A DNA stretch of 64,000 bases from a virus (IMGVR_UViG_3300032243_000867:32001-96000), one strand, 5' to 3'. Positions 2,677 to 64,000 are shown, numbered from the stretch's first letter. Program-made: numbers and translations. The notes: generated by a model not told the origin, from the letters alone.

Positions 2677-4083
2677 GTGGACCTGATCGCCCGCGTTGAG
2701 ACCCCCGAGTCCCGCGCGTTTGCACGGGACGAAGCCGCACGGGCGAAGCACGCCCAGGGTGCCGTGCGGGCGTTTCGGGCGCTGGCGGTGGCTTCCGCCC
2801 CGATGGCGGAAGAGGCGAAAGCTGCGTTCCCCGGTAGGGATCAGCAGTCCCTCGACCGACGGTTGCGGGCGTTCACCAAACTGGCGAAGGAAAACGACGC
2901 CGTCCAGAAGTACCTCGACCAGTGGATCGGCACGGAGGACGTAGACCCGTCCGCGTACTCCTGGCGGTCGAAGATCACCTACGCCCTGCGGGACTACCTA
3001 CTGGGCGGGCTGAAACTCTCTGATACCGTGGCGGTGGTCGAGAAGTACGCGCTGGTGAGCTTTCAGGCCATCACCATGCACGCGGTACAGGCCCCCATCC
3101 GTGAAGCCCTGCCCGCGGAGGTGATGGCGTACCTCCCGAAGACGGTGGTGGTGAAGGTGGACCCGAAGGGGAAGATCACCGAGGTCACCGACCGTTTCAA
3201 GAACGAGTACTTCACGTTGGCCCTGAAGGCCAAGCAGATGCGGAAGATCCTCGCGGGCTACAACCGCATCGCCCGTGAGGTGAAGAAGGATCTCAAGAGC
3301 CCGGACGAGACGACCCGCCTATCGGCCATCGTCACGTCGATCATCATGGAAACGGGCATTCGTCCCGGCAAAATCGGCAACGGCAAGGTGGTGTTGAAGG
3401 GCGGGTCGGAGGAGTTCGTCGAAACCTTCGGCGCGGCGACGCTGGGACCTTCGCACGTCAAGTTCGTGCGGGACAACTTCGCGGAACTGGAGTTCGCGGG
3501 CAAGAAGGGCGGCATCAACACGGCCCGGTTGTCCGACGCCGACATTGTGAAGGTGCTGAAGGACTATGTCGCCAAGGCGCTGAAGTCGGGCTCCCCCTAC
3601 ATCTTCGTGACGAAGGGCGGCACCCCTTACGACTACAACGACCTCGACAGGTACTTCCGGCAGAAGATGGAAGGCATCAACCCCACGGACTTCCGAAAGC
3701 TCCGAGCAACCGAGGAAGTGCTGAACGCCATCGTTGAGGAGCAAGAGGGCCTGTACGGGCGCATTCGCAAGCTCAAGTCTCTCAAGAAGGATGCCCTCAA
3801 GCAAGCCATCGTGTCCGAGGTGGTAGCCACCCTTCAGCGGGCCATCGAGCGGTCCCAATCCGCCCTATCGCACGAGAGCGATACGACCACGGTGGAGAGC
3901 TACATCCACCCCGGCGTTCTGTTTCGGTTCCTGTCTACGGGGCGGCTCGAAAAGAATCTGGACGACCTGCTGGCGACGGGCAAGACGGAACTGAAGTTCG
4001 ACCCCGAAGCGTTCCTCTCCCAAGCGATGGGTAAGAAGGCTTCGGCCTCTCGCGTCGCCGCGCAGTACCTCAGTTCGCGGTAA
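2677..4083 (+). CDS. DNA topoisomerase IB-like protein
   Basis: TopIB catalytic set in order: ETGIRPG (R), FAGKKG (K), TDFRKLRAT (R), LSHE...SYIHP (H, Y). Confidence 0.8.
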   Translation: MDLIARVETPESRAFARDEAARAKHAQGAVRAFRALAVASAPMAEEAKAAFPGRDQQSLDRRLRAFTKLAKENDAVQKYLDQWIGTEDVDPSAYSWRSKITYALRDYLLGGLKLSDTVAVVEKYALVSFQAITMHAVQAPIREALPAEVMAYLPKTVVVKVDPKGKITEVTDRFKNEYFTLALKAKQMRKILAGYNRIAREVKKDLKSPDETTRLSAIVTSIIMETGIRPGKIGNGKVVLKGGSEEFVETFGAATLGPSHVKFVRDNFAELEFAGKKGGINTARLSDADIVKVLKDYVAKALKSGSPYIFVTKGGTPYDYNDLDRYFRQKMEGINPTDFRKLRATEEVLNAIVEEQEGLYGRIRKLKSLKKDALKQAIVSEVVATLQRAIERSQSALSHESDTTTVESYIHPGVLFRFLSTGRLEKNLDDLLATGKTELKFDPEAFLSQAMGKKASASRVAAQYLSSR

Positions 4084-4378
4084 ACCTGTGAAAATCCCAA
4101 TCCGGGCGGGTGCCCGTGACGGATACCTCGACTCCCATCTCGTAACCCGCGTCGTAAGCGCAGTTGTCGCCCTCTCTCAAAGAGGGGTCGCGGCCCATTC
4201 CTTCACGGCCCATAACGTAGCCCGCGGCGAACGAACCCCGGTCACCGAAGGGTGCCGGAACTTCGCCCCAGCGTAGGCGGTTGACCTCCATCGTGAGGAG
4301 GGTGTCTTGCTTTTTACCGCCGAGGAAGTTGGGGTCGTTCCTAGCGGCTAGATGGAACAGAACGGCGTACGGGTTCAC
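4070..4378 (-). CDS. hypothetical protein
   Basis: GTG start overlaps the TGA of the upstream methyltransferase (GTGA coupling). Confidence 0.55.
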   Translation of the reverse strand: MNPYAVLFHLAARNDPNFLGGKKQDTLLTMEVNRLRWGEVPAPFGDRGSFAAGYVMGREGMGRDPSLREGDNCAYDAGYEMGVEVSVTGTRPDWDFHRFTAN

Positions 4379-4941
4379 AGTCTTTTCCCCCATGTCGTGG
4401 CGTCGAGCCTGTCAGGGTTGGGGTTGTAGGGGTGTTGTTCAGAATTCGCTATTCCCGCAAGCTCTTCATGGTGCAGCGTGCGGTCCGGGCGGGGGTCGTT
4501 ACCGTAGTGAATCATTACGTTCCATCGGCAGGGTAGGCACTTCACGGTGCCCCTCAACACGAGGTGGGAGAACAGGTCGGGCGTCCCGCAAGCGGTCCCG
4601 TCCGTGTTCTTGCCGACGTAGAGGACGTGGGGGATGGAGCGGAGAATCCCCGTCAATCCCATCAGCGTGTAGTTCTGGGGCCAGCACAGGACGGCCACCT
4701 CTACGCCCTCCGGGCACTTCCAATGCGCGAAGTAGCTCTGATGTACCTCGACCTTGGGGTGCTCCACGGGACACGGTCCCTTGTCCACGGCGTGGACGAG
4801 CGTAGCCCCCATGTCGGCCATCGTGCGGGAGAGCTCGCCGCTACCGCATCCTAAGTCCGCGACCGCGCGCCCTTCGACCACAGTGCGGAGGTAGGCCAAC
4901 TGTTCCTCTGACAGCGTGTAGTAGGTGCCCGTCCTGCTCAT
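4375..4941 (-). CDS. class I SAM-dependent methyltransferase
   Basis: VADLGCGSG motif I and HAVD motif II; start re-called at ATG 4941, coupled to the upstream minigene stop. Confidence 0.75.
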   Translation of the reverse strand: MSRTGTYYTLSEEQLAYLRTVVEGRAVADLGCGSGELSRTMADMGATLVHAVDKGPCPVEHPKVEVHQSYFAHWKCPEGVEVAVLCWPQNYTLMGLTGILRSIPHVLYVGKNTDGTACGTPDLFSHLVLRGTVKCLPCRWNVMIHYGNDPRPDRTLHHEELAGIANSEQHPYNPNPDRLDATTWGKRL

Positions 4942-5111
4942 CGGGGTTCCTTTCCCCGCAGCGCGCACCGAAACCCCAGGTTGAGGATCCGGTACGCAGG
5001 CACGCTCGTGTGGCGAGACGCCGCGCTCACCCACGACGGTACGTTGAGGCCCCAACTGCCGCCGCGGATGACGAGGTAACGGGTGTCGGTGGGCTTTGTG
5101 GGGGGTTTCAC
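4938..5111 (-). CDS. FGE/CLec variable-region-like minigene, copy A (57 aa)
   Basis: Hand translation VKPPTKPTDTRYLVIRGGSWGLNVPSWVSAASRHTSVPAYRILNLGFRCALRGKEPR; GTGA/ATGA overlaps at both ends. Confidence 0.75.
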   Translation of the reverse strand: MKPPTKPTDTRYLVIRGGSWGLNVPSWVSAASRHTSVPAYRILNLGFRCALRGKEPR

Positions 5112-5251
5112 GGCTCACCCCGGAACAGGATGTAGAAGAGGAGGCACAGCGCGGCCACGGTGAACGGGGATACCTGTAGATCGAACCGCTCTGAGAGCGT
5201 GAGGTCTTCCCAGCTTGGGATGCGGCAGTCGTCGTCGGGTTCGCGGGGCAT
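5108..5251 (-). CDS. small membrane protein (47 aa)
   Basis: MPREPDDDCRIPSWEDLTLSERFDLQVSPFTVAALCLLFYILFRGEP; GGGCGTAA motif 9 nt upstream; hydrophobic C-terminus. Confidence 0.55.
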   Translation of the reverse strand: MPREPDDDCRIPSWEDLTLSERFDLQVSPFTVAALCLLFYILFRGEP

Positions 5252-5369: not shown

Positions 5370-5387
5370 CGCCCGTAGGGTACGAGC

Positions 5388-9276: not shown

Positions 9277-9633
9277 ATGACCGCCAGCGCCCGTAGGGTT
9301 GTTGCACGCTACCTATCCGCCGCCCCCCTTCGCCTAGACCCAGCGGTGACGAGAACGGTGGACCTAGCCTTGGTGAAGGCGGGGATGGACGGGAACAGCC
9401 CGTTCCGAAGCACCTCCCTCGCGGTCAACCGCATCGGAGAGGTTCTGTCGTCTCACTCCCTGGGTCTCTCGGGGCTGAACGCGGCATCGGTGCGGGGAAG
9501 CGAAGGAGAGGCTTCCGCGAGGTTGGTGTCCCGGAACGCCGAGGGGATGGCGATGCTGACCACCTCGAAGCTGACCCTTCAGTGGGTCACGGCGGACGAC
9601 GGAACCGTGAAGGTCGTTGCCTACCTGACCTAG
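9277..9633 (+). CDS. hypothetical putative virion protein
   Basis: GAGGAG RBS; N-terminal ARRVVARYL motif shared with other proteins in the window. Confidence 0.6.
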   Translation: MTASARRVVARYLSAAPLRLDPAVTRTVDLALVKAGMDGNSPFRSTSLAVNRIGEVLSSHSLGLSGLNAASVRGSEGEASARLVSRNAEGMAMLTTSKLTLQWVTADDGTVKVVAYLT

Positions 9634-11256: not shown

Positions 11257-12924
11257 TTGACCTCCCCTGCCTACGGGGGCGGAACCCCCGAAGTGAAGGA
11301 ACTCTCTGCCATGGATCGTATCGCCGCTCGGAACATCGTTCGCAGGGTGCTGTTCGCCATGATCGCGAAGCATCAGGCGAATCAAGCCCCCCTCCCCAAG
11401 AAGGCGTCTCTCCCGACGGGGAACGTGCTGACGGGGTTGGATATGCTGGCACGCGCCCAGTTCCTGGAGGGTCTGGCGGGTAAGCCTTTCGGTTCAATCT
11501 CCTCCAAGGCGGGGGGCGGGAGGCCGGTGGCCAAGAAGGTCATCGGGAAGTTGCTTCTCCTTCTCGATCCGACTCTCAACCCTGCGGACCTCGAACCGAA
11601 GCACGAGAAAGAAGTCGAAAAAATTCCGGCGGGTCCCGGAATGACGGGCAGCAAGCTGAACGAATGGGTCAGCGACGCCGGGGCTTCCGGCCTCTACCGT
11701 TCCGCATGGCTCGGGGCGAACCGCGCACTGGCCCGTACTCGCGGGCCGACGGGCTCGGGTCTTGAGGCGACGGATGTCCTCACGGCGAATATGCTTCGCT
11801 TCATCGACCCTTCTTCGGGGGAGCCCGCGATGGACGAGGCTGCTCTCGAAGAGTTCGCCCAATCCGCGAGCATGGGGGAGAAGCAAGAGGTTCTTGAGAA
11901 CCAAGAGAAGGCCCTTCGGGACGGCGTTCTGGAAGAAGCCGCCAACATGGGCAACTTCTTCTGGATGGCCGGAAAGAAGATGCAAGCGGCCAAGGCGAAG
12001 ATCCTCTCCGAGGATATCGGCATCGACCGTCTCGGTGGAATCGTCGCCCGGTACGCCTTCAACGACGCGAGCAAGCTCGTGGAGAAGCTGGAGACGGAAT
12101 CCCGCGCACTGGCCCGCGCGCTGAAGTTGGATATGCTCCCCGGCGCTAACGAGGAGCGGGCCGACTTCGACCTGGGAGAGCTCACCCCCACGGGTTGGGG
12201 TTACGTCATCCAGGCCGTCCTCGGGGACCCGAACAGCCACTTCTCGCAGGAAGTGTTCGACTGGATGCTGGACGACGTGAAGTTCCACCCTTCCCTCAAC
12301 GACAAAGAGAAGCAGGTGATGACCGCGTACGTCCAGGCCGTGATCGACGGGCGGCTGTCGGGCTTCATGAGCGCCGAGGGGGCGAGCGCGGGTCGTGGCG
12401 CTGACCGGGGCTTCATCGAGGACTACAACCGCCGGAACCCCGACGCCACCCTCACCCCCAACTACTTCGGCGTCGTCAAAAACAAGTATTTTGGAAAGGA
12501 CGGGGCGGAAGTTGCGAAGCGTCTTCACGACGAAGCCCCCGAGTGGAAGCTGGACGCAGAGGACCAGTTGTTCCTGATGAACGCGCAGAAGGGTCGCGGG
12601 AAGTTCGCCGCTCAGAAGGTCGCCGCCGAGGAGCGCGCCCTGCGCTCCAAAATCATCCGTCTGGCGCACCAGAACCCGGCGATGCGCCCGCACCTTCTCC
12701 CGCTGCTGGTTCGCACGGCGGCGGGGGAAGAAGGAACGCTGGCGGGGCGGACGTGGGGCGGTCCGGGCGCGGGCCGTGACTGGGACTGGAACAAGCCCGA
12801 GTATGCTTCGCACGAGGATTCCCCCCCCGCGGGTTCCAACGGCAGCACCGAGCGCGCGGAGTACAACAAGTGGTACCGCGAGAACGTCTGCCCTTCCAAG
12901 CACGGCACGGGTTGCGGTCTGTAA
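11257..12924 (+). CDS. hypothetical putative virion protein (start may be ATG 11311)
   Basis: Long ORF with phage-like codon use; C-terminal LRSKIIRLAHQNPAMRPHLLPLL module. Confidence 0.6.
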   Translation: MTSPAYGGGTPEVKELSAMDRIAARNIVRRVLFAMIAKHQANQAPLPKKASLPTGNVLTGLDMLARAQFLEGLAGKPFGSISSKAGGGRPVAKKVIGKLLLLLDPTLNPADLEPKHEKEVEKIPAGPGMTGSKLNEWVSDAGASGLYRSAWLGANRALARTRGPTGSGLEATDVLTANMLRFIDPSSGEPAMDEAALEEFAQSASMGEKQEVLENQEKALRDGVLEEAANMGNFFWMAGKKMQAAKAKILSEDIGIDRLGGIVARYAFNDASKLVEKLETESRALARALKLDMLPGANEERADFDLGELTPTGWGYVIQAVLGDPNSHFSQEVFDWMLDDVKFHPSLNDKEKQVMTAYVQAVIDGRLSGFMSAEGASAGRGADRGFIEDYNRRNPDATLTPNYFGVVKNKYFGKDGAEVAKRLHDEAPEWKLDAEDQLFLMNAQKGRGKFAAQKVAAEERALRSKIIRLAHQNPAMRPHLLPLLVRTAAGEEGTLAGRTWGGPGAGRDWDWNKPEYASHEDSPPAGSNGSTERAEYNKWYRENVCPSKHGTGCGL

Positions 12925-47671: not shown

Positions 47672-48007
47672 ATGGAACCTGACGACAATCCCCTTACCGT
47701 GCGGGTGGTTATGGCCCGATCCGTCGCGGATCGCTGGCTTCGGGGACACACCCGTAGCGAGTACCGCTTCACGGTCTTCGGGTTTCAGAGCCCCGCGAAG
47801 GCCAAAAGGTTCGCTTCGAGCCTTCGGTCCATTCGGGACCGTCAGCTTCGCGTCTCCTCGCACCCCACCCATCTGCCCGTGATTGCGGATCTTGGGGTCA
47901 AAGAGAAGGGGGACGCTGTCGAGCTCTGGTCTTCCAACGTAGAGGCCCTGCGAAAGATCGCCCGCTGGGCGGAGTCCGCGGGAATGAACACCGACTTCAT
48001 CTGGTGA
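47672..48007 (+). CDS. hypothetical putative virion protein
   Basis: ARSVADRWL motif; first gene of the structural block. Confidence 0.6.
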   Translation: MEPDDNPLTVRVVMARSVADRWLRGHTRSEYRFTVFGFQSPAKAKRFASSLRSIRDRQLRVSSHPTHLPVIADLGVKEKGDAVELWSSNVEALRKIARWAESAGMNTDFIW

Positions 48008-50236: not shown

Positions 50237-51172
50237 ATGACCGACCGCAAGCCCGACCCCAAAAACATCGCGCGCCGCGCCATGATCCGCACGGCGGGTG
50301 AGGTCCGCTTCATCAAGGACAAGTCGAACGACGCCAACCAGTGGGCGTGGAACGACTCCGGTCCCCAAGAGCGGAAGATCACCCCGGACTTCGCGTTCGA
50401 CCCGAGGAACACCAAGCCCCTCGCCAAGGTGCTGCGGTCCACCAACGCGGCACTGGGCCATGCCATGTCGGCCTACGCCATCTTCACGAAGATCAAGTCG
50501 GCGGATGTCTCTCCCGACGGCAGCTTGGGTGGCAAAGGGTACATCCAGAAGATCGCGGAGATGCGACGGGCTTACATGAACGTGGTGGAAGCCATGAGTG
50601 CCCTGTCCGACACCCTGTACGACGAGATCCGTGCGCCTCACTGGGCGGCGGTGTCCCGGCAGGAAGATCCCGAGGAGCGCGCCGAGGTCGAGCAGATCGT
50701 CGAGGATGCCATCGAGATCAAACAAGACCCCGAGGGATGGGCCGAGGACCAAGAAGAAGAGATGGACGAGGAGAACGAGGAAGAGATGGCGAAGGCCGTC
50801 AAGCTCGCGTCTCACCGTTCGTTGGTGTCCTCTATGGATACCGTTCTCACCCCGCAGCAAAAAAAGGCGTTCGCCCGGGTTTCGGGGGAGTTCTATACGG
50901 GGGCGACTTCTTCTCCGAACGCCTTGGTGGCCTCGGTTGAGAGAATCTTGGCTTCGTCCCCTCAGTTGAAAGGGGTGGAGTTTGGGCTGGCCTATGGCGA
51001 ATACGACGGGGACTTCTACGTTCTGTACGTCGGTCCCTTCGATCCTAAAGGCCCAGACGTTTCTAGAGCCGCAAGGGCCAGAGCTTCGACTCTGGCCTAT
51101 GAACTCGATCTGGACGACGGCGGGAAAGACTGGATTATGGATTCCATCCTAACGCAATGGGTGATGGCATGA
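50237..51172 (+). CDS. hypothetical putative virion protein
   Basis: Acidic linker; structural block. Confidence 0.6.
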   Translation: MTDRKPDPKNIARRAMIRTAGEVRFIKDKSNDANQWAWNDSGPQERKITPDFAFDPRNTKPLAKVLRSTNAALGHAMSAYAIFTKIKSADVSPDGSLGGKGYIQKIAEMRRAYMNVVEAMSALSDTLYDEIRAPHWAAVSRQEDPEERAEVEQIVEDAIEIKQDPEGWAEDQEEEMDEENEEEMAKAVKLASHRSLVSSMDTVLTPQQKKAFARVSGEFYTGATSSPNALVASVERILASSPQLKGVEFGLAYGEYDGDFYVLYVGPFDPKGPDVSRAARARASTLAYELDLDDGGKDWIMDSILTQWVMA

Positions 51173-53325
51173 GCTCCCGCACGCCCGATGGCGGCTATAT
51201 GCCTACTTTCGCGAGCAACTATATGCTCGACGGCTTCGATTTCTCCGAGGAGTACGGAGAAGGGCCGCTGATGAACCACAAGGTTCCTACCACGTCCCGT
51301 ACGACGGGTATGCCTGCTGCCGCCCGTTCCGAAGCGGGCATGGCGAAGCTCCCAGACGGGATCGTCACCGCCGACGACCAAGATCGCGAGTCCGCCGAGC
51401 AGTACCCGATGGGGCTCAACGTGTTCGCGGGTGCGGAGGGCACAAACTTGGGAGACCTGTCGGGCATGGTCCGAGAGGCCAACCACATCACCGACCTGTC
51501 GTGGCTAGAACTCGCGGAACAGGACCCCGACCGCCTTCCCCAGCAGCACAACGACAAGGCCCTTCAGGGCCTGGTGGAAGCGTGGGGCACCAACAAGCGC
51601 ACGGACGGGGTAGAGGTCATTCCCAACGTCGTGGTTCCTCCCGCGTCCCGGTCGCAGGTGGCACTTCTTCCCGGCGACGACGCGATGCGTCAAATGGTTG
51701 CCAGCGCGATGCGGAAGTCGGCCTTCGGGGTCCCCTTCGGGAACATCTTGTCCGACCTCGCCGCCCATCTAGGGCCGAACGCCCTGTCCCTCGTGGAAAC
51801 CGACCCCCGGTTTCAGCGGTTCGCAGCGGCGGTGCGCTCGGTCAAGGCCGAACACGGCATCTCGGGCACCCTGTACCTGCGGGATAGCGCGTTCCCCGGG
51901 CTTCTCTCGGGTAAGTGGGATCGGGAGATCAAGAAGCGGTGCGCCAGCGCCCGCTACTGGCTGACCCGTCCGGGATCGAAGCTGGCCGCGTACCAGAACT
52001 ACCTCGGCAAGCAGGTGGTGACAGAGATTCCTTGGAACGAGGCTCTCTCTCACTACCGCCCGACGTTGGAAGCATCCGGCAAACGCCTCGCTTCGGGAAA
52101 CGCCAAGACGGTGCTCGTCTCCGCGCTACGGGCAGAAGCAACCCGTGTCGCACGGGAAACCCATCACACCTATCACCTCACCCCGTCCGAAACGGTGACC
52201 TCGCGCGAGGCGTGGCGGGTGTTTGCGAGTGCCGCGCCCCCCAAGCGGGAGATCCTCCAGAAAGACTCGGTGAGGGTCACCCTCGATCAAGCTCGGCAGC
52301 GGTTCGCTAGCTGGGTACGGGCCGGGATGCTCTCCGAAGACATGGCGCGGAAGGTTCTCGCTTCCGACTTGTCTGTCGAGGACAAGCTGCGGAACGGCGC
52401 GGCGATTGTTGCCCGTGCGACAAAGTCGTCGAAGTATGACGGGCAGGGCGTAGGGGCGAAGTCCCCGGAACGGGCGTCGAAGACCGCCCTCGACGCGGAC
52501 CTCGACGCGCAGCGCCTCGCGGCTGACGTAGAGGCTCGCCGCACCCGTGCGGTGGAAGCGAAGGTCGCAGCCCGGTTCGCTAGCTGGGTGAAGGCGGGGA
52601 TGCTTACGGAAGGGCAGGCGGCAGACCTGATCGGTCGCGACGCCCCGGCCATCGACCGTGTGAGAGCGGGCGCAGCCCTCGCTTCCAAGGCTCGCATCGC
52701 CCAGTACGCGGGAGAAGGCGTCGGGTCCAGCGTTCACACGGGCATCCGCAAGGCTAGCGAAGGTGGGGATACCCGCCCGGTGCTGAAGTACGCGATGCAG
52801 AAGATGAACGAGGGGGCGGCAGGTAACGACCTGGACGTTCTTCTGAACTCGCACTTCTCGCAGGGGTACCTCAAGGGCGCGGGCGAACAGTTGGTGCAGC
52901 TTCGCCGGAAGCACGAAGGTCTGGCGGGTCACGTCTACGTTGCGGCGGATGCATATGCCAGCAAGATGGGGACGACCGGGTGCGACCAGGGCTCTCTGAT
53001 CCACCGGGCGAACCAAGTGAAGGCCGTCCTCCAGATGGAACGCTGCGGTAGCTGCACCCACAACACCGAGGGTCACTGCCAGAAGTACGCGAAGCAACTG
53101 GTGTCCGCCGCCCCGGTGGCTAACCCCGCGAAGTACCAGCGGGAGACCATCCGACTCGCGAATGCCGACGACAGCGAGCGAACGGCGGCGATGTTCAACA
53201 ACTACGACCCCGGCGAGTTCGACCTTCAGAACGACTCTCTCGACACATTCAACTACGACAACCTCCCCGATCACGGAACCCTTCACGGGATTCTGTTCGA
53301 GGGGATGACACTTCCCGAGGAGTGA
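51169..53325 (+). CDS. large putative virion protein with internal repeat
   Basis: Two RFASWV[RK]AGML..Y.G.GVG repeats and a C-terminal Cys cluster. Confidence 0.65.
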   Translation: MSSRTPDGGYMPTFASNYMLDGFDFSEEYGEGPLMNHKVPTTSRTTGMPAAARSEAGMAKLPDGIVTADDQDRESAEQYPMGLNVFAGAEGTNLGDLSGMVREANHITDLSWLELAEQDPDRLPQQHNDKALQGLVEAWGTNKRTDGVEVIPNVVVPPASRSQVALLPGDDAMRQMVASAMRKSAFGVPFGNILSDLAAHLGPNALSLVETDPRFQRFAAAVRSVKAEHGISGTLYLRDSAFPGLLSGKWDREIKKRCASARYWLTRPGSKLAAYQNYLGKQVVTEIPWNEALSHYRPTLEASGKRLASGNAKTVLVSALRAEATRVARETHHTYHLTPSETVTSREAWRVFASAAPPKREILQKDSVRVTLDQARQRFASWVRAGMLSEDMARKVLASDLSVEDKLRNGAAIVARATKSSKYDGQGVGAKSPERASKTALDADLDAQRLAADVEARRTRAVEAKVAARFASWVKAGMLTEGQAADLIGRDAPAIDRVRAGAALASKARIAQYAGEGVGSSVHTGIRKASEGGDTRPVLKYAMQKMNEGAAGNDLDVLLNSHFSQGYLKGAGEQLVQLRRKHEGLAGHVYVAADAYASKMGTTGCDQGSLIHRANQVKAVLQMERCGSCTHNTEGHCQKYAKQLVSAAPVANPAKYQRETIRLANADDSERTAAMFNNYDPGEFDLQNDSLDTFNYDNLPDHGTLHGILFEGMTLPEE

Positions 53326-54742: not shown

Positions 54743-56590
54743 ATGACCCTTGCCAACCTCGTTCTCTCTGGTGCGCGTGCGGTTTCTCCCGCGAACGCCT
54801 CTACTTCTGTCGCGAACATCATCGAGTTCGTTGAGGAGCCTTGGGGCCTCGGGATGCAACTGTTCCCGATCCAGAAGATCATCCTCAAGGCTCACTATGG
54901 ACTCCCTCTCGATGACACGCAGACCTTCACGGTGACCGATTGGCGGCGGCAGAACCCCCGCCAGATGACCGAGAAGGAGTACCTCGCCTACCTGTACAGC
55001 GAGGGGCGGTCGAACATCAAAGAGGTGGTGCCGGGGCACGAGCGCCGGGAGATGATCCTCTCCATCGGTCGCCGTTCTGGCAAGACCACAATCAGCGCGT
55101 GCATCTCCGCCTACGAGACGTACAAGCTCATCTCGAAGGGCGACCCCCAGGCGTACTACGGGCTTCCGCAGAGCAACATGATCCAGTTGATCTCGGTCGC
55201 CACCGACAAAGATCAGGCGGGTCTGCTCTACCAAGAGGTGTCCGGGCACTTTCGGAACTGTGCGTTCTTCGGCCCGTACACCGCCAACAACACCATGTCC
55301 TATGCGCGCTTCCAGACGCCGAAGGACGTAGAGCGGTACGGGGCCTACTCAGACGATCCGAGCGCGAAGGCCACCGTCAAGGTCACCTTCCGTAGCTGCG
55401 TCGCTAAAGGTCTCCGTGGCGCGGGCAACATCGTCGTGATTCTCGACGAGGTGGCGCACTTCACCGACGCGGGGCAGTCCTCCGCCGACGCCGTGTACAA
55501 CGCCGTCGTCCCGTCTACCTCCGCGTACTCGGCCAAAGATCCCAAGGACCGCCGCAAGCCCATCGGTCAGGTAGAGGGCCGAATCATCCTGATCTCCAGC
55601 CCACTGGGTAGGCAGGGGCTGTTCTACAAGATGTTCCAGATCGGCATGGGCGGCGGAATGGCCGCAGAGAATATGCTCTGCATCCAAGCGCCGACGTGGG
55701 AGGTGAACCCCACGGTCCCGGCGCACGAATTTGAGAAGCACTACCTGAAGGACCAAGCGGTCTTCTTCACGGAGTACGGCGGCGAGTTCAGCGACCGCAC
55801 CCGTGGGTGGATCGAGCGGGGCGACGACCTCGTGGCGTGCGTGGAAACGTCTGCGCGCCCTCAGCAGAGGGGAATCCCCCGCGTTGCGTACTTTCTCGGC
55901 CTGGACTTGGGCCTCGTTGGGGACGGTACGGCGGTATCCATCGGTCACCTAGACCCGAACGGGCACATCGTCGTAGACCTCGTAGACCAGATCAAGGCGG
56001 GTGCCGGGAAATACGTCGGAAAGGAACGGCTGGAGTTCGACGACGTGGCCGACTGGGTTCTGGACCTGTCGAAGCGGTTCTACATTCAGGAAGGAATGTT
56101 CGACCAGTGGTCGGGCATTCCGTTCGAGCAAGCTCTCTCCAAGAGGGGGCTGAGCCAGATGAAGTCGCATCCCATGACGAAACAACTCACGTCCCAGATG
56201 TTCCAGAACTTCAAGGACATGATGTGGGACAAGAAGCTGGTTCTCTACGACTTCCCTATCGCCCCGAACGAGGGTCACTGCCCATACATCGCGGAGCTTC
56301 TAGAGCTACAGGCCGAGTACCACAGCAAGTTCGTGACGACCGTGGAAGCGCCGAACATCGACGGAAAGCACGACGATATGTCCGACGCCCTTGTTCGCAT
56401 GGTGTGGCTGGCGTCGAACCGCCTCTCCAAGAACATTCACCTCTCTGGGGTTCAACGTCAGAACGGTCCGGTAATCCCCGGATACTCCCGCGTAGTTATG
56501 CGCGCGAAGCTACTCCAGAGCGGGTCGCACGAGTCTCGTCAGATCCCTCGTCATGGGTCGGGGGGTCTGCGAAAGTGGGGTCCACGATGA
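54743..56590 (+). CDS. terL: terminase large subunit
   Basis: GRRSGKT Walker A, VVILDE Walker B, nuclease GLDLG..FDQW..HDDMSDA. Confidence 0.88.
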   Translation: MTLANLVLSGARAVSPANASTSVANIIEFVEEPWGLGMQLFPIQKIILKAHYGLPLDDTQTFTVTDWRRQNPRQMTEKEYLAYLYSEGRSNIKEVVPGHERREMILSIGRRSGKTTISACISAYETYKLISKGDPQAYYGLPQSNMIQLISVATDKDQAGLLYQEVSGHFRNCAFFGPYTANNTMSYARFQTPKDVERYGAYSDDPSAKATVKVTFRSCVAKGLRGAGNIVVILDEVAHFTDAGQSSADAVYNAVVPSTSAYSAKDPKDRRKPIGQVEGRIILISSPLGRQGLFYKMFQIGMGGGMAAENMLCIQAPTWEVNPTVPAHEFEKHYLKDQAVFFTEYGGEFSDRTRGWIERGDDLVACVETSARPQQRGIPRVAYFLGLDLGLVGDGTAVSIGHLDPNGHIVVDLVDQIKAGAGKYVGKERLEFDDVADWVLDLSKRFYIQEGMFDQWSGIPFEQALSKRGLSQMKSHPMTKQLTSQMFQNFKDMMWDKKLVLYDFPIAPNEGHCPYIAELLELQAEYHSKFVTTVEAPNIDGKHDDMSDALVRMVWLASNRLSKNIHLSGVQRQNGPVIPGYSRVVMRAKLLQSGSHESRQIPRHGSGGLRKWGPR

Positions 56591-57173: not shown

Positions 57174-58862
57174 ATGCCCAAGACAAACGAAGATGCGGTT
57201 GAGGTGAAGCGCGTCGCGCCCAAGGAGAAGGGCGCGAAGGTCGGCAAGCCCGGAAAGATCGTCACGTCGTCCATGCGGTCGAAGGTGGCTTTCCCCGCGT
57301 CGGGCGGCACCGTGGGCGGCACGGGGGGCAACTTCTACTCGCCCGAGCTCTCGACCGACTTCCTAGAGCTCCCGCAGTCGCTCGACGAGAAGCGCAACTA
57401 CTTTCGGTTCTTCTACCAGAACGATCCCTTCGTCGGTCAGGCTATCGACCTTCACACCATCCTCCCGCTGTCAAAGACCCGGCTGACCACGCCGAAGGCG
57501 AAAGATCCCGAGCTCGCGCAGAAATCACTGAACTTCTGCACCCGGTGGTCGCGCGAGATCGGGCTCCTTCACCGTCTTCTCGAAATGGTCCACGAGTACA
57601 ACCTCCTGGGGGAAGTCTTTGTCTTCGCAGAAGACACCTCGCCCGATATGCCCGAGGAGGTCACCCACGAGGTGATTCGCGAGCTTGACGAGGACGGCAA
57701 TCCCACCGAGCGCACGGTGCGCCGGGAGGACGCCGACGCCCGCGCCGAGAAGTGGTTGAAGCGCAACTACAGAGGTTGGACGGCGATCCGTGTGCTCCCC
57801 CCGGAGCAGGTCCACATGGAGAGCTTCCCGTTCACCGACGAGAAGATGATTGAGCTCATCCCGGACAGCAAGACCAAGGACATCGTGAACCGCGCCGACA
57901 TGGGCGACGAGTCCGCCATGCGGATCGTCAAGTCCATGCCCGAGGGTGTGGTCAACGCCATCCGAGAAGGCACGAACATCCCGTTGAACACGGACCCCGA
58001 CGCCGGGTCGTTCGTCCACTACATGGCCCAGAAGAAGTCGCAGTACGAGCCTCGCGGGCACTCGATTCTGCAAAGGTGCCTCCGCACCCTCGTGTACCGG
58101 GACAAGCTGCGCCAAGCGCAGACCAGCATCGCTTCGCGCCACATGACGCCCATTCGCATCGTGACGGCGGCGGATATGTCCGCGACGGATACGGACGCCC
58201 TGCGCGACCAGGTGGACCTCGCCCTTCAAGACCCGGATTACTCGATCATCACGAACTTCGAGGTGAACTGGAACGAGATGGGATCGCAGGGGAGGCTCCT
58301 AGAGCTCTCCAGCGAGTACGACATGACCGACCGCCAGATGTACGCGGGGCTCGGTGTGACGGAGTCCCTACTGTCGGGCGAGAGCTCGTACTCGGGCGAC
58401 CGCATCAACCTCGAAGTCATCAACACCCGGTATATGCTCCTGCGAGAAGTCTTGCAGGACATGGTCGAGGACAAGATGCTTCGCCCGATGTGCCGCCGCA
58501 TGGGGTTCATCGAGACCGACGAAGACGGTAACGAGACGGTCATCTGCCCTTCCCTGTCGTTCACGCGCCTCGCACTCCGGGACAACGCGGACACGTTCGA
58601 CGCCCTGTTCAACCTCTACCAGAAGGGCTCGCTGGACGTGGACGTGATTCTGGAGCTGCTGAACATCGACCCGTACACCACCCGCGAGCGGCTCAAGCGC
58701 GACGTGTTCACGTTCAACGACAGCAAGTTCAACGACGTGCTGGGGGGGATCTACTCCGAGGCGGGCCGCGCCCTCGCGGAGAACAGCGACGTGGTGGCGA
58801 AGATCGCGGAAACCTTGGGGTTGAAGTACGCGAAGCCCCAGACCGAGGAGGGGCGTTTCTGA
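57174..58862 (+). CDS. portal protein (probable)
   Basis: 562 aa after terminase; FFYQNDPFVGQAIDLH, GEVFVF, RGHSILQRCL and AGLGVT patterns. Confidence 0.7.
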   Translation: MPKTNEDAVEVKRVAPKEKGAKVGKPGKIVTSSMRSKVAFPASGGTVGGTGGNFYSPELSTDFLELPQSLDEKRNYFRFFYQNDPFVGQAIDLHTILPLSKTRLTTPKAKDPELAQKSLNFCTRWSREIGLLHRLLEMVHEYNLLGEVFVFAEDTSPDMPEEVTHEVIRELDEDGNPTERTVRREDADARAEKWLKRNYRGWTAIRVLPPEQVHMESFPFTDEKMIELIPDSKTKDIVNRADMGDESAMRIVKSMPEGVVNAIREGTNIPLNTDPDAGSFVHYMAQKKSQYEPRGHSILQRCLRTLVYRDKLRQAQTSIASRHMTPIRIVTAADMSATDTDALRDQVDLALQDPDYSIITNFEVNWNEMGSQGRLLELSSEYDMTDRQMYAGLGVTESLLSGESSYSGDRINLEVINTRYMLLREVLQDMVEDKMLRPMCRRMGFIETDEDGNETVICPSLSFTRLALRDNADTFDALFNLYQKGSLDVDVILELLNIDPYTTRERLKRDVFTFNDSKFNDVLGGIYSEAGRALAENSDVVAKIAETLGLKYAKPQTEEGRF

Positions 58863-58872: not shown

Positions 58873-60111
58873 TTACGGGGCCGTCCCCTGATCGGTTCTC
58901 GTTTCAACGGAATCTGCCCGGATCGCTCCGGGTCTTACGTTTCCTCCACGAGCAGTAACCGGGGTTCCCCCGGCCAGAAAGTTTAGACCCCAACCCCGAA
59001 GGTTGAGTGCCGCGTTCACGTCGCGGTCTTGGGCGTACCCACAACAGTCGCAAACGTAGATGCGCTCCGATAGGGGTAGCGACGACTTCACGTCCCCGCA
59101 GCCGTTACAGGTCTTGCTGGACGGATAGAAGCGGTCTGATACAACGAGCTTCACCCCGTACCACTCACACTTGTACGTCAGTTGACGGCGAATCTCCGCG
59201 AACGATGCGGAGCTTACAGACCGGGCTAGGCTGAGGTTCCGGGTCATACCCGTCACGTTCAAGTCCTCGATGACGATAGCAGCGGGCCGCTTGGTTTTCA
59301 CGATCTCGCTGGTCATTTTGTGGAGGGCGTCCGCCCGTTGATTGCTGATCCGTGCGTGAGCGCGGGCGAAGCGGTCCTTGGTCTCGGCCCTCCGTTGCGA
59401 TCCTTTCTGTTGTCGCGATAGCTTCCGTTGAAGGCGTGCTAGGGACGCTTGCGACCGTTCAAGGTGCTTCGGGTTCTGGTAGTCCGTTCCGTCCGATAGC
59501 GTCGCGAGGGTCTTGATGCCGAGGTCGATTCCGAGAACCTCCCCAGTCGTTTCGACCTTCGGAGGGTCGGGTACTTCAACCAGAACGGTTGCGAACCACC
59601 GCCCTGCGACCTCGCTCACGGTGACGGTCTTGAGGGGTACGTCCGTGGGGACGTAGCCCCGCTGCTTCAACCGCACGGGGCCGATCTTCGGAAGTCGAAC
59701 GTGCGTCTGGGTGACCGAAGCCTTTTGCGGAAATTGAAACGACGGTTTGGACACCCCGCGCTTCTTGAACTTTGGGTAGCCGGGGGTCTGTCCCGCCTTC
59801 ACCCGGCGGAAAAATCCTTGAAACGCCCGGTCGAGATTACGAACGGACATCTGGAGGGATTGAGCGGTCACCTCCGCGAGCCAAGGACGCTCGACCTTCA
59901 ATGCCGGGAGGCGGGCTTGAAGATCGAGGGGACGTAGGGCTCCCTTCACCTTCTCGCCTTCGGGGGTCGCGGCCTTTCGATCCGCGTAGTCCTTCGTCAA
60001 GGTAGCGAGGCCCCAGTTGTAGACGAACCTCACCGCCCCGGCATGACGGACGAAGGCAGTCCGCTGCCGGTCGTTGGGGTCCAACTCCACCCTGTAGGCC
60101 CGCAGGATCAC
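58873..60111 (-). CDS. tnpB: RNA-guided endonuclease TnpB
   Basis: RAYRVELDP HTH, GIDLG, IVIEDL, CNGC/CDCC zinc finger, DRDVNAALN; GTG start re-called at 60111. Confidence 0.92.
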   Translation of the reverse strand: MILRAYRVELDPNDRQRTAFVRHAGAVRFVYNWGLATLTKDYADRKAATPEGEKVKGALRPLDLQARLPALKVERPWLAEVTAQSLQMSVRNLDRAFQGFFRRVKAGQTPGYPKFKKRGVSKPSFQFPQKASVTQTHVRLPKIGPVRLKQRGYVPTDVPLKTVTVSEVAGRWFATVLVEVPDPPKVETTGEVLGIDLGIKTLATLSDGTDYQNPKHLERSQASLARLQRKLSRQQKGSQRRAETKDRFARAHARISNQRADALHKMTSEIVKTKRPAAIVIEDLNVTGMTRNLSLARSVSSASFAEIRRQLTYKCEWYGVKLVVSDRFYPSSKTCNGCGDVKSSLPLSERIYVCDCCGYAQDRDVNAALNLRGWGLNFLAGGTPVTARGGNVRPGAIRADSVETRTDQGTAP

Positions 60112-60263
60112 TCGACAGGTGCCTTCGGTTGCGAGGCCATCTCGCGGAGGACGAGCTCGCGAATGACTTGGGCGCGAGGCACCCGACGCCGAATACTCTC
60201 GGCTTTGAGCCATTCGATTTGGTCCGGGTCAAACCCAACAAGCACTTGAACCTTCGCTGACAT
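60108..60263 (-). CDS. ribbon-helix-helix (CopG-like) DNA-binding protein (51 aa)
   Basis: MSAKVQVLVGFDPDQIEWLKAESIRRRVPRAQVIRELVLREMASQPKAPVE; its TGA overlaps the tnpB GTG; not in the ORF track. Confidence 0.7.
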   Translation of the reverse strand: MSAKVQVLVGFDPDQIEWLKAESIRRRVPRAQVIRELVLREMASQPKAPVE

Positions 60264-60344: not shown

Positions 60345-60788
60345 ATGAACCGCCGCGCCGACGAGACGCCTGACCTCCTACCGATCATGCACCCCCTCTA
60401 CAACATGAGGGAGGTGTGCAAGCAGACGGCGTTGCTTGAGGACCACCTCAACAACGAGCGCAAGCGGTGTACGGACTGCATTCGTAAGCACTTCCTCACC
60501 ATCGAAGCCCTGCTGGAAGAGGCGGTCAGCCTCGACAACAAGGCCAAGTGGGCCGACCTCCTCGGCGGCAAGGTCGAGCTCGTGCGGGAATGCCAAGCCC
60601 GCTGGATCGACGGCGAGGAGCCTTGCGACATCGCCCAAGACCTCCGCGTGGTCCGCAAGGAGCTCACCCCAGAGTGCTTCGACCTCCGAGAGATGACCTC
60701 CGAGTCTCGGCTGGCTAGCTCCCGGTCGCCCCTATACCGTCAGGTCGCGGGCCGGTACCTTTCGCGCGGATTCCACTTCTGTCGGTGA
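60345..60788 (+). CDS. hypothetical protein with conserved Cys/His cluster
   Basis: EDHL..RCTDCIRKHF; C-terminal RQVAGRYL motif. Confidence 0.65.
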   Translation: MNRRADETPDLLPIMHPLYNMREVCKQTALLEDHLNNERKRCTDCIRKHFLTIEALLEEAVSLDNKAKWADLLGGKVELVRECQARWIDGEEPCDIAQDLRVVRKELTPECFDLREMTSESRLASSRSPLYRQVAGRYLSRGFHFCR

Positions 60789-60791
60789 CGT

Positions 60792-61337
60792 ATGACCCCC
60801 ACGAAGATCGCGGTATTTGACTTCGACGGGACGCTGTTCCGCAGTCCCGAGAAGCCCGATAGCTGGGCCGAAGGGTGGTGGGGCAACCCCGTTTCCCTGA
60901 ACCCGCCCGTGGTGCCGGAAGCCCCCGGTGTGGGTTGGTGGAACGCTTCCGTGGTGCAGCGGGCGAAGGAGGACATCGCTAGCGACGAGGTCTTCGCCGT
61001 GATGGTCACGGGGCGGCTGGCCAAGAAGTTCACCGCGCGCGTGAAGGACTTGCTGGCGCACGCGGGTCTGAAGTTCGACCGAATCTACCTAGCCCCCGGC
61101 GGCGACACGGAGTCGTACAAGCTGCGGGTGATCGGTGATCTCATCAAGGAGTTTCCCACCGTCACGGGCGTGGACCTCTGGGAAGACCGCGCCCCGCACC
61201 TTGCGAAGTTCTCGGATTTCGTGGAGTCGAAGGGCCGTGCGGCGTTCCCGCACCTTATCACCGTGTCGGCCCAGAAGCCCGAAGGGTTGCCCAGCGCCGC
61301 GAAGGTGGCGAGCTTATACCTGTCGCGGAGGCAGTGA
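60792..61337 (+). CDS. HAD-family phosphatase (Swiss Army Knife RNA-repair-like)
   Basis: FDFDGTLFRSP, VTGR, FDRIYL, WEDR. Confidence 0.75.
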   Translation: MTPTKIAVFDFDGTLFRSPEKPDSWAEGWWGNPVSLNPPVVPEAPGVGWWNASVVQRAKEDIASDEVFAVMVTGRLAKKFTARVKDLLAHAGLKFDRIYLAPGGDTESYKLRVIGDLIKEFPTVTGVDLWEDRAPHLAKFSDFVESKGRAAFPHLITVSAQKPEGLPSAAKVASLYLSRRQ

Positions 61338-64000
61338 TGTCGGTCGGACTGTTCCTACCCCTTCCCGAGAAGCTCGCGTCAAAATTCCCCTCGCTAGGGG
61401 ATCATGACACGTCGCCCCCGCACGCGACCCTTCTGTACTTCGGGGACGCCCCCGAGGACCGGGAGCGGTTTCTCGCGGTCATCCGTTCGCACCTGAGCCA
61501 ATGGCCGGGGAAAATCACCGCGACACTTCGCGGGCTCCGTCACTTCGACAACGCCGATGCCACGGTGGCCTACGACAGCGTGCGCTTCGACGCCGATGTG
61601 GCGGGTCTGCGTTCTTCCCTCATCGCGCACCTGTCGGACAACGGGTTCCCCTCGACGGATAGGTCTCCCGTCCGCTACTTCCCCCACGTCACGCTGGCCT
61701 ACCTACCGCCTAACAGCGTAGGTGCGTACGGGGGTCCGGTGCCCGTGGGTTCATGGACCTTCGACGAGGTGGAAGTCTGGGGTCTGGAGGATGACCCGGT
61801 GGTGCTACCGCTGGGCGGTGTATCCGTTACCCGCGTCGCCGCCCGTTACAAGTCCAAGAAGAAGATCGAAACCAAGGACGGCGACGAAGCCACGGTGTAC
61901 GAGTACAGCGACCGTCAGGTCGCCAACCGTCACCGTGAAAAGGCCGAGCGGGTCGAGCACCTGCGAAACCACATCACGGACCTCCGCGCGCGGGTGAAGG
62001 ACGATCTGAAGTCCGACGACCCCATGACCCGGATGACGGCCCTCGCCGTGTCTCTCATGGACCACACCTGTGAGCGGGTGGGGAACGACGACAGCGCAGA
62101 CGACGGCCACTACGGCGTCACGGGCTGGCTGAAGAAGCACATCACCATCCGGGACGGCAAGGCCACGATCAAGTACGTCGGCAAGTCCGGGGTCGATCAC
62201 GAAAAGACCGTGGACGACGGCCCCACGGTCACCGCCCTGAAGGAACTGTGCGAAGGGCTTGGGAAGGAAGACGCCATCTTCGACACGGACGACGCGAAGG
62301 TCAGCGCCGACGAGGTGAACGACTACCTCGCGGAGTTCGATGTCACCGCCAAGGACATCCGGGGCTTTCGCGCCAACGACGAGATGTGCAAGGCCCTACG
62401 GGCGGAACGCGCCAAGGGACCGAAAGAGCTCCCCCGCGCCCGCAAGGAGAAGGACGAGATCCTCAAGGCCGAGTTCAAGCGGGCGCTGGAGACGGTCGCG
62501 GAGGTGGTGGGCCACGAAGCCGCCACCCTACGCTCCCAGTACCTCGTGCCGGGGCTGGAAGACCAGTACGTACACGACGGGACGGTGCTGAAGTCCCTCA
62601 AGGTAGGCACCAAGACCGAAGCCCAGCGCGAGGACGAGGCCACGGAGAAGTTGGTGAAGCCCGCGCCGAAGGCAAAGCCCCCGCGCCACGATCTACGGAA
62701 CGAACGGGTGGAAGCTGAGGGCGACCCCGACCTCGACGACACCGACGACGACCTGTCGCTGAACTTCAAGAAGGTCGCGGGGATCGTTCGTGCGGCGCTG
62801 TTTGCGGGAATGTCTCGCCGCGTGTTGTCGAGATCTCAGAGCAAAGTACAAGAGTTCAAGAAGTTTCCCACTCGGGCGGACACCCGGCACCGAGTACAAG
62901 AGTTCCCCGCAGTTGATGCGAAGGCCGTTCAAGAAGAGTCGGAGTTTCAGAAATACGTCGAAGGTGAGAAATTTCGCACGAACAAGTCGGACCGAGAAGA
63001 AGGCGTGTCTTTCTCCTACCTGGAAAAGATCGACCCCCAAGCGGCCAAGAAGGTCCGAAAGGATTGGGGCAAGAAGAGAACCCAGGACACCCCTCAAGAC
63101 TCCCTTAAAAATCGGGAGAAGAAGCAAAAGGAACTGTCGAAGCCCTCTTCCCCCGAACAAATCCAGAAGCTGGTAGAGGAAATCCAGTCTTCGGAATCCG
63201 CCAAGGCTATGACCGAGGGGGACCGCGAAAACGTATCGAACCTGATCTCTTCCGTCATGGACGGTCAGAGCGGCAATTCCAACGAGAAGCTGAACGCTCG
63301 TATCGAGAAGTACAACGCGGAATCCGTCGAGAAGCTCAAGGGCGGAACGGACCGCAAGACGGTGGACGCTCTGCGAAAGGTGCCCGAGGGGCTCTACGGC
63401 AAGGGCGTGAAGATGACCACGTTCGACTCGAAGAAGTCGGGCGACGCCATCGCCAAGAAGCAGAAGGCCCGCGACAAGATCCAGAAGGACCTCGAACAAG
63501 CCAAGCGGGACGGGGAGAGCCTTCCGTCTGAAATCGAGCGGGCGAAATATGAGAAGAAGGTCAAGGAACAAGAACTCAAGGGCGAACAAACCAAGCTGAA
63601 AGGTTTGAAAGAGGGCACCCCGGAGCACGCACGCCGGAAGTCGAGAGTGTCCACGCTTCAGGCGGCTATCGAAAAGCTGGACGTTTCGATAACGGGCGGC
63701 ACCAAGAAGAGGGATGCCGACGAAAAGCTCCTTCCGGCACTGAAGGCGTCTCTGGACAAGGAGACGAGCGAACTCAACGCGATGACGGCGTATCACGTCT
63801 CGCAGGAGCACCTGTCGTCGCGTTTGACCGATATGTCGTCGTTGAAGTCGGACTCCCCCTCGGAGCGCCTTTCCGAAGCCTCCAAGCACTTGCAGGCGCT
63901 GCCCCCTGAGATGCGGGACAAGTCCATCGAACGGTCGAAGGCACGGCGGGACGAGAAGAAGAAGGAGCTGGACAACGCCTCGTCGGACGAGGAACGGGCG
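61337..64000 (+). CDS. multidomain protein: 2H phosphoesterase + topoisomerase IB + charged coiled coil (partial, runs off the window)
   Basis: Hand translation shows 888 codons with no stop; HAT and HVT motifs; CERVGN, VGKSG, KDIRGFRAN, GHEAATLRSQY; missing from the ORF track. Confidence 0.8.
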   Translation, partial: MSVGLFLPLPEKLASKFPSLGDHDTSPPHATLLYFGDAPEDRERFLAVIRSHLSQWPGKITATLRGLRHFDNADATVAYDSVRFDADVAGLRSSLIAHLSDNGFPSTDRSPVRYFPHVTLAYLPPNSVGAYGGPVPVGSWTFDEVEVWGLEDDPVVLPLGGVSVTRVAARYKSKKKIETKDGDEATVYEYSDRQVANRHREKAERVEHLRNHITDLRARVKDDLKSDDPMTRMTALAVSLMDHTCERVGNDDSADDGHYGVTGWLKKHITIRDGKATIKYVGKSGVDHEKTVDDGPTVTALKELCEGLGKEDAIFDTDDAKVSADEVNDYLAEFDVTAKDIRGFRANDEMCKALRAERAKGPKELPRARKEKDEILKAEFKRALETVAEVVGHEAATLRSQYLVPGLEDQYVHDGTVLKSLKVGTKTEAQREDEATEKLVKPAPKAKPPRHDLRNERVEAEGDPDLDDTDDDLSLNFKKVAGIVRAALFAGMSRRVLSRSQSKVQEFKKFPTRADTRHRVQEFPAVDAKAVQEESEFQKYVEGEKFRTNKSDREEGVSFSYLEKIDPQAAKKVRKDWGKKRTQDTPQDSLKNREKKQKELSKPSSPEQIQKLVEEIQSSESAKAMTEGDRENVSNLISSVMDGQSGNSNEKLNARIEKYNAESVEKLKGGTDRKTVDALRKVPEGLYGKGVKMTTFDSKKSGDAIAKKQKARDKIQKDLEQAKRDGESLPSEIERAKYEKKVKEQELKGEQTKLKGLKEGTPEHARRKSRVSTLQAAIEKLDVSITGGTKKRDADEKLLPALKASLDKETSELNAMTAYHVSQEHLSSRLTDMSSLKSDSPSERLSEASKHLQALPPEMRDKSIERSKARRDEKKKELDNASSDEERA

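Follow-up and report, generated by a model that had tools for sequence, protein, structure and literature searches.

What does one short peptide do at the ends and domain borders of viral proteins that are otherwise unrelated? The question arises from a 64,000-nucleotide stretch of DNA (IMGVR_UViG_3300032243_000867:32001-96000, hereafter the window), which comprises bases 32001-96000 of one 265,895-bp virus record with 64% G+C. An earlier note on the window had drawn attention to a shared peptide of the form [RK]VAxR[YW]L and had proposed it as a capsid-targeting or maturation signal. Here, we report that this peptide lies within a longer, 13-residue motif, tag1, that recurs at the ends and in the linkers of many otherwise unrelated proteins, both in this 266-kb phage and in its many uncultivated relatives. 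Selection acts on tag1 as protein; the motif behaves as a module, is spread through the clade and is tied to the head module by gene order.

A shared motif conserved as protein

Tag1 has the consensus [P/A]-S-[A/P]-x-R-V-A-[A/S]-R-[Y/F/H]-L-S-x-[K/R], or S-A-x-R-V-A-x-R-Y-L-S-x-K in its short form. All seven peptides listed in the earlier note are encoded on the plus strand where it had placed them (4045-4071, 9289-9315, 47714-47740, 52558-52578, 60738-60761, 61296-61322 and 61829-61852). None of the seven fits [RK]VAxR[YW]L exactly, each departing from it by at least one residue, and the pattern was therefore tested with mismatches. Across the proteome of 244 genes it matches 13 times with at most one mismatch, compared to 1.3 ± 1.1 in within-protein shuffles, which is far above chance, whereas at up to two mismatches the excess is nearly gone (52 observed versus 38.8 shuffled). 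Residues outside the original pattern are also conserved, namely Ser at -3, Ala or Pro at -2, Ser at +8 and Lys or Arg at +9/+10. Six of the listed peptides belong to the longer motif, but the seventh, AKVAARF, is the kind of partial match that the two-mismatch counts lead one to expect by chance.

A proteome-wide scan, which the earlier note had proposed as a check, was run with a 13-column matrix trained on 11 sites from this genome only and applied with a cut-off of usually at least 12 bits. It returned 14 matches versus 0.9 in shuffles. The trained sites score 24.8-34.8 bits, and the best that the five remaining reading frames (421,604 amino acids) offer is 20.5 bits. Among the matches outside the training set are the C-terminus of a protein that joins a 2H phosphoesterase to a type IB topoisomerase (TopIB), at residue 1140 of 1156, and the C-terminus of a polyA-polymerase-like protein, at residue 690 of 705. 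At least 13 unrelated proteins of this genome bear tag1, in a proteome that has only 11 homologous pairs. Where residues are identical between copies, 63% of the codon pairs differ, and mean nucleotide identity is 48%; tag1 is thus conserved as protein and not as DNA, which rules out a DNA-level repeat as its source.

One relative used for comparison is the uncultured 485-kb phage LR745208, whose capsid protein is 93.5% identical to the one encoded here; identity falls to 47.6% for Tunturiibacter phage Tunturi_5 and to 38% for Bacillus phage G. Close DNA or TopIB matches were sought among deposited phage genomes, and none was found. A capsid-gene search of IMG/VR gave 558 matching stretches, the best 80 of which have capsid proteins 88-99% identical, lie on contigs of up to 618 kb and span 33-65% G+C; the family counts over head modules given below refer to 80 head loci. 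Genes were called by a simple third-position G+C rule, so crude that small genes and start codons are approximate.

The motif holds up in the independent genome. In 658 crude gene calls from LR745208, the matrix finds 16 matches of at least 12 bits versus 1.1 in shuffles, and 5 versus 0.12 at 15 bits or more. IMG/VR loci around orthologues of tagged proteins yield 21 matches of at least 15 bits versus 0.1, an excess that is partly expected from orthology, yet several of these copies stand at new places. Essentially no tag1 was found in AT-rich distant loci or in the head regions of Tunturi_5 and phage G, where just one match within a real gene reaches 12 bits, that in the phage G portal (13.8 bits), and two Tunturi_5 matches (12.5 and 13.0 bits) fall in short open reading frames (ORFs) with no annotated-gene counterpart.

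Copy statistics were taken over 75 unique tag1 copies. Five positions are nearly fixed: V5 in 73, A6 in 71, R/K4 in 67, R/K8 in 63 and position 9, which is aromatic or His (Y/F/H/W), in 71. Loci from AT-rich members show variants such as R-I-A-x-K-H-L. The C-terminus is at most 20 residues away in 25 copies and the N-terminus in 8; all others are internal. The earlier note had put the motif at termini and domain boundaries, which agrees with the 33 copies close to an end and with the location of the other placeable copies between Pfam domains. Like short linear motifs in general, tag1 is short, conserved, situated in disordered regions, and gained or lost independently of the adjoining domains. 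We regard it as nearly certain that tag1 is a real, selected docking motif of some kind.

Gain, loss and domain joints

Alignments of orthologues show tag1 kept at the same ends and linkers while the adjoining linker diverges or changes length. The HAD phosphatase, for instance, retains its C-terminal copy in two relatives (L018 and L023), and the LR745208 orthologue (36% identity) of a 118-residue window protein likewise keeps a copy. Within one family the motif may be present or absent: orthologues of TopIB paralogue 1 with 68-70% identity end without tag1, one with 44% has it, and one with 50% carries two tandem copies as the linker to an extra domain. Among homologues of a DUF5872-like bearer, tag1 is absent, N-terminal, central or C-terminal. 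We also considered tag1 as a part of Pfam family DUF5872, to which one bearer has a weak match, and rejected this, given that homologues in the family have the tag elsewhere or lack it.

Tag1 behaves as an independent module, with domain fusion and fission occurring exactly at the tags. In this genome, the gene for a HAD phosphatase ending in tag1 is followed by one with the order 2H, tag1, TopIB, degenerate tag, long K/E-rich region and tag1, while in L021 and LR745208 HAD and TopIB are fused and tag1 is the junction. The copy between 2H and TopIB is present in all aligned orthologues; in L024 the gene is split directly after it, giving two genes, 2H-tag and TopIB-tag. The order is reversed in L092 (tag-TopIB...CPD-tag). 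The degenerate site after the TopIB domain aligns with full copies in the L018 and L023 orthologues (24.6 and 28.3 bits, respectively), and shorter orthologues stop there. In a 3032-residue protein, tag1 precedes the nucleotidyltransferase domain and reappears in a linker further on, and one orthologue carries four copies of at least 12 bits.

The window encodes two TopIB paralogues (2677-4083 and 61334-64000; Topoisom_I, E = 6e-11 and 4e-27), one of which is fused to a 2H phosphoesterase and a K/E-rich region of about 600 residues; its ORF starts at 61334 and runs past the window end. In relatives, TopIB is fused to HAD or to a CPD domain of the fungal-tRNA-ligase type. A conserved linker module of the form KPxPKxKPPRxDLR...DPDL...DLSL precedes tag1 after the TopIB domain (window 62650-62800, residues ~440-490 of the 2H-TopIB protein). 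It recurs on the post-portal protein of AT-rich L096, L103 and L116, phages without a TopIB gene.

Physical character of the tag

AlphaFold2 models were obtained for two bearers encoded in the head module. In the pre-protease protein, an SH3-like barrel and a zinc ribbon are connected by a linker with a predicted local distance difference test score (pLDDT) below 50, in which the sole element is a helix at residues 108-114, corresponding to tag1. In the post-portal protein, a four-helix bundle with pLDDT above 90 is followed by a low-confidence tail with a helix at residues 130-141, again corresponding to tag1. These models suggest that tag1 is presented as a short helix on a flexible tail or linker, between or after folded domains. 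The motif has a net charge of +2 to +3 and is predicted to be helical. Its mean hydrophobicity is low and its hydrophobic moment is 0.18-0.54, with 24% of shuffles reaching the value of the best copy; a moment this unremarkable makes a membrane anchor unlikely.

The post-portal protein (60345-60788) is very conserved and has invariant residues C25, H34, C42, C45 and H49, which possibly form a metal site. A structure search of its model gave no significant PDB match; helix-peptide-binding bundles (FAT domain with LD motif, FliS) are among its weak, non-significant neighbours. No Pfam family matched this 147-residue protein even at E <= 10. In particular, it has no Phage_Mu_F domain, the hallmark of minor head proteins of the MuF or SPP1 gp7 type, whose genes follow that of the portal, and its model is a plain four-helix bundle. 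For the tagged proteins of obscure role in general, function searches in PHROGs, Pfam, ESM Atlas and Foldseek were uninformative.

Association with the head module

Downstream of the gene for the terminase large subunit lie, in order, those for the portal, an opposite-strand transposase, three tagged proteins, an acidic scaffold-like protein, a fourth tagged protein, the prohead protease (with an intein), a 508-residue acidic scaffold, a 226-residue protein and the capsid protein. This head gene order is preserved in LR745208 and in dozens of contigs across 33-65% G+C. Between portal and protease, four of five genes are tagged compared to 13 of 244 genome-wide (hypergeometric P = 2.4e-5, for an interval chosen post hoc). 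All four are found in the 11 kb that precede the capsid gene, and another tagged gene follows it at a distance of 5.5 kb. The other tagged genes are dispersed, occurring beside a VgrG-like spike and an amidase, in the neck/tail operon and adjoining the replication block. Long IMG/VR contigs, whose records are 10-36% complete and include no capsid gene, were uninformative as to a link between tag presence and capsid type.

The proteins that carry tag1 and those that lack it fall into two sets. At the 12-bit cut-off, no copy was found on the portal (0 of 14), protease (0 of 42), main scaffold (0 of 47), 226-residue protein (0 of 43), major capsid protein (0 of 40) or second scaffold-like protein (0 of 11). 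Five families are tagged, namely the post-portal bundle protein (6 of 14 unique orthologue sequences, C-terminal), the TopIB fusions (15 of 19), the pre-protease protein (9 of 21) and two proteins encoded after the major capsid protein (11 of 18 and 4 of 16). Untagged shell builders and tagged passenger families are what would be expected if the passengers dock on the shell-building set.

The protease matched only the PHROG family 'head maturation protease' and no Pfam protease family. Its gene (L003:2071-4827, genome 98071-100827, outside the window) includes an intein with Hint and LAGLIDADG domains at residues ~196-623, while relatives such as L021 and LR745208 have an intein-less protease of 474 residues. 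In LR745208, a 71% identical copy of the transposase lies between terminase and portal instead, and this difference in insertion site implies that the mobile element has been active inside the head operon. The protease has an acidic scaffold-like protein encoded on each side of it (L003:891-1526 and L003:4840-6366, both beyond the window end). The first of these has a conserved, vaguely tag-like start, KKASKxGARRVTAxLDxLAxLF, and a conserved end, KTASLFGLF; in the second, the first 145 and last 50 residues are highly conserved around a variable acidic repeat region.

A second shared peptide

All-against-all short BLAST revealed a second and longer shared peptide, tag2, of the form LR[ST][KR]x[IV]RLAHxxPxLRPxLLPLL[K/T/R]xA. 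It occurs in 8 otherwise unrelated proteins here (one encoded by ORF 11257-12924, and seven by genes elsewhere in the genome) and in at least 10 in LR745208, with 19 unique copies overall. Tag2 is mostly N-terminal and nearly always ends in [KR]-x-A, a position and an end that make it look more like the leader of T4 internal proteins than tag1 does. These ends, together with the [KR]-x-A triplet that directly precedes 10 of the 75 tag1 copies, are compatible with a protease site of that form. The tail of the prohead protease has a five-residue string, LIRLA, that resembles the first half of tag2.

A further shared peptide involves the capsid protein itself. Directly upstream of the tagged TopIB paralogue 1 lies an ORF of 794 residues (window 280-2664) with an N-terminal C39-type peptidase domain. 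Its residues 325-338 copy a peptide of the N-arm of the major capsid protein, with 11 identities in 14 residues (pairwise BLAST E = 4e-4).

Features in the window

The tag copies and landmark genes of the window are collected in Table 1. The copy in the 111-residue ORF starting at 47672 would be residues 1-13 if the second ATG were the start codon. Relatives of the 111- and 118-residue proteins were sought in IMG/VR and none was found, so that the former copy fits the motif but is unconfirmed by conservation. The weak stretch at 61907-61945 may be part of the TopIB N-terminal domain rather than a tag.

Table 1. Tag copies, tag-like stretches and head-module genes of the window, numbered from its first letter
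Feature	Position	Strand	Score or remark
tag1, last 13 residues (456-468) of TopIB paralogue 1 (ORF 2677-4083)	4042..4080	+	29.4 bits; contains ASRVAAQYL
tag1, residues 4-16 of 118-aa protein (ORF 9277-9633, good ribosome-binding site)	9286..9324	+	30.8 bits; ARRVVARYL
tag2 (LRSKxIRLAHxxPxLRPxLLPLL..A) copy, residues 462-488 of 555-aa protein (ORF 11257-12924)	12640..12720	+	
tag1-like, residues 14-26 of 111-aa protein (ORF 47672-48007)	47711..47749	+	24.8 bits, training set; ARSVADRWL
AKVAARF, not a tag copy, 722-aa protein (ORF 51157-53325)	52558..52578	+	<8 bits on matrix
Terminase large subunit gene	54743..56590	+	phrog_2, 2.7e-23
Portal gene	57174..58862	+	phrog_16240, 5.3e-34; directly upstream of tagged cluster, transposase gene intervening
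Transposase gene between portal and tagged cluster	58873-60213	-	phrog_506, E = 5.5e-118
Three consecutive tagged genes; cluster continues beyond window	60345..64000	+	
tag1, residues 130-142 of 147, post-portal protein (ORF 60345-60788)	60732..60770	+	matrix; RQVAGRYL
tag1, residues 168-180 of 181, HAD_SAK_1 phosphatase (ORF 60792-61337)	61293..61331	+	matrix; AAKVASLYL
tag1, residues 164-176 of 1156-aa 2H-TopIB protein, between 2H and TopIB domains	61823..61861	+	28.9 bits; TRVAARYK
Weak tag-like stretch, residues 192-204 of 2H-TopIB protein	61907..61945	+	12.0 bits; identical in L019
Degenerate tag1 after TopIB domain, residues 493-505 of 2H-TopIB protein	62810..62848	+	8.8 bits

What the tag may do

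We give an even chance to the proposition that tag1 is a position-independent, head-targeting docking helix. The earlier suggestion of capsid targeting is borne out to the extent that gene context ties the motif to head assembly and that passengers are tagged while shell builders are not; it fails in its likeness to the N-terminal leader of T4. Under this proposal, a basic helix-forming peptide of about 13 residues with an N-capping Ser, displayed on a flexible tail or linker in N-terminal, C-terminal or interdomain position, would bind one conserved part of the assembling prohead, be it the scaffold, the capsid interior, the portal region or an adaptor, and would thereby recruit its bearers into the head. 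The passengers would comprise two type IB topoisomerases, a 2H phosphoesterase, a HAD phosphatase, a CCA/polyA-type nucleotidyltransferase and several small conserved head-module proteins, which, once in the head, would act there or be delivered with the DNA. Some of them might in addition be trimmed by the prohead protease. The capsid protein and the first 145 residues of the scaffold are candidate partners on account of their very high conservation, and the highly conserved post-portal four-helix bundle is a candidate reader of the tag. One complex prediction, combining the capsid protein, the second scaffold-like protein, residues 1-150 of the main scaffold and a 43-residue piece with the best tag, gave a score of 0.18 and a mark of 0.32, values that favour binding no more than they count against it.

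Several observations weigh against head targeting. The cultured phages whose capsid proteins come closest, Tunturi_5 (47.6%) and phage G (38%), belong to the same lineage in capsid, portal and protease, and their head regions have neither the tagged families nor the tag. Roughly one tagged gene in two has no recognisable structural module around it; some, for instance, adjoin the replication block at 192-200 kb. Unlike the T4 capsid targeting sequence (CTS), tag1 is mostly C-terminal or internal, and it has no consistent adjoining cut site. Gene order near head genes is suggestive and not proof, and the tagged cluster could stem in part from domain shuffling among related enzymes and not from independent placements.

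A bolder version of the head-targeting proposal, which we put forward only tentatively, is that the clade uses a position-independent peptide address and a second, mostly N-terminal one, to load into the capsid a changeable kit of enzymes that repair nucleic-acid ends (TopIB, 2H/CPD phosphoesterase, HAD phosphatase and CCA-type nucleotidyltransferase). The kit would enter with the DNA and repair tRNA, RNA or DNA cut by host defences before phage expression, and the post-portal bundle would perhaps serve as an adaptor.

The strongest rival, though an unlikely one in our view, is that tag1 docks its bearers on a cytoplasmic hub unrelated to the capsid, for example a complex for repairing or processing nucleic acids, in which TopIB, 2H, HAD and nucleotidyltransferase would come together. 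Short terminal peptides gather partners in this manner on sliding clamps or scaffold proteins, and terminal position on a flexible tail is typical of hub-binding motifs generally. Many bearers are indeed nucleic-acid end-processing enzymes (HAD_SAK_1, 2H/CPD, TopIB and the PolyA_pol head domain), and several tagged genes outside the structural modules adjoin those for DNA polymerase A, DnaB and an SNF2 helicase. Yet, as the earlier note had observed of the replication block, its enzymes are themselves untagged (DNA polymerase A, DnaB helicase and clamp loader), and the bearers with the widest conservation are small proteins without enzymatic function that have fixed places in the portal-to-capsid block, a placement that a hub leaves unexplained. 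A clamp-binding motif, a Tat signal and a C39 double-glycine leader were also considered as candidate identities and rejected: neither their positions nor their sequences agree with tag1, and the replication enzymes lack the tag.

Rather improbable is the proposal that tag1 serves above all to be recognised by the prohead protease or another phage protease, marking polyprotein cuts without any targeting role. It would account for the copies in linkers of multi-domain proteins (1156, 1592 and 3032 residues) whose domains also occur as separate genes ending at the tag, and the prohead protease gene does lie inside the tagged cluster. The [KR]-x-A triplet precedes tag1 directly in 10 of the 75 copies versus 0.95 expected, with no enrichment in other registers, and recurs at nearly every tag2 end. 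The remaining 65 copies lack the triplet, however, and Pro precedes 21 of the 75; many copies sit a few residues from a natural end, where cutting would free only the tag, and a conserved helix of 13 residues exceeds what known prohead-protease sites need. These counts do not establish that the motif is itself a maturation signal in the sense of a cut site.

We consider it very improbable that tag1 acts through a physical property, as a basic helix of generic kind with affinity for nucleic acid or membrane and no specific protein partner. Its charge, its predicted helicity and the DNA and RNA enzymes among its bearers would suit such a role, but conservation falls on specific positions (V5, A6, R/K4 and the Y/F/H/W at 9) and is not merely basic, and the low hydrophobicity and unremarkable moment speak against a membrane anchor. 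Finally, chance or composition might be supposed to produce an apparent motif in DNA of 64% G+C whose proteome is rich in Ala, Arg, Val and Leu. The absence of exact pattern fits, the small excess at two mismatches and the one chance-level listed copy might plead for such an artefact, which is rejected by the shuffles, the five other reading frames, the conserved flanks, conservation among orthologues and the independent genome, and its probability is close to nil.

If tag1 is a head-loading address, it would show which huge-phage proteins of obscure role travel inside the particle, would suggest that the phage brings in finished enzymes for RNA and DNA repair, and would offer a small handle, usable at any position, by which foreign proteins could be loaded into very large capsids. 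Regardless of packaging, it offers a clear natural case of a short linear motif in viruses: how it is gained and lost, and how it serves at domain-shuffling junctions, can be traced across hundreds of genomes. With 13 residues and five near-invariant positions, it also presents a compact target for experiments.

Comparison with known systems

The CTS of the T4 internal proteins, reportedly described by Mullaney and Black in 1996, resembles tag1 in that a short peptide alone is common to unrelated proteins of one phage, that the bearers include enzymes and that loading into the prohead is the proposed role. The T4 internal proteins share only this sequence, which loads them into the scaffolding core (PMC3012670; PMC7411985); in IPI-III and Alt it is an N-terminal leader of 10-20 residues that ends in a gp21 cut site and is removed (PMC3012670, PMC7411985). 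Tag1 is unrelated to it in sequence, is mostly C-terminal or internal, with 8 of 75 copies within 20 residues of the N-terminus, and can be repeated up to three or four times in one protein. Nor is there a consistent cut site, [KR]-x-A preceding 10 of 75 copies versus 0.95 expected.

In form, tag1 is closer to the cargo-loading peptides of encapsulins than to the T4 CTS. Those peptides are about 10 residues long and are carried by various enzymes on a flexible N- or C-terminal tail, and the cargo genes adjoin the gene for an HK97-fold shell, whose inner face has a pocket that binds them. Tag1 is likewise found at the termini of diverse enzymes on a flexible linker, and tagged genes lie near a shell gene. 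The sequences are unrelated, and the present case concerns a tailed phage with portal, scaffold and protease.

The C-terminal tail of the HK97 maturation protease is said, in work by Duda, Oh and Hendrix from 2013, to target the procapsid and to be able to carry foreign proteins. A C-terminal peptide that loads a protein into the procapsid is the point of likeness. The HK97 tail sits on the protease itself, whereas here the protease lacks tag1 in all 42 orthologues.

Among jumbo phages, phiKZ and SPN3US process the propeptides of ejection and head proteins, in systems defined by a three-residue cut motif and by proteomics (PMC7411985, PMC10052503). They, too, pack many different head proteins, some of them enzymes, with processing by a protease. 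There, a shared 13-residue docking helix is not the defining feature, and the capsid lineage is different. Tag1 differs from the T4 CTS, the encapsulin peptides and the HK97 tail in its sequence, its independence of position, its occasional occurrence in several copies and the lineage that carries it.

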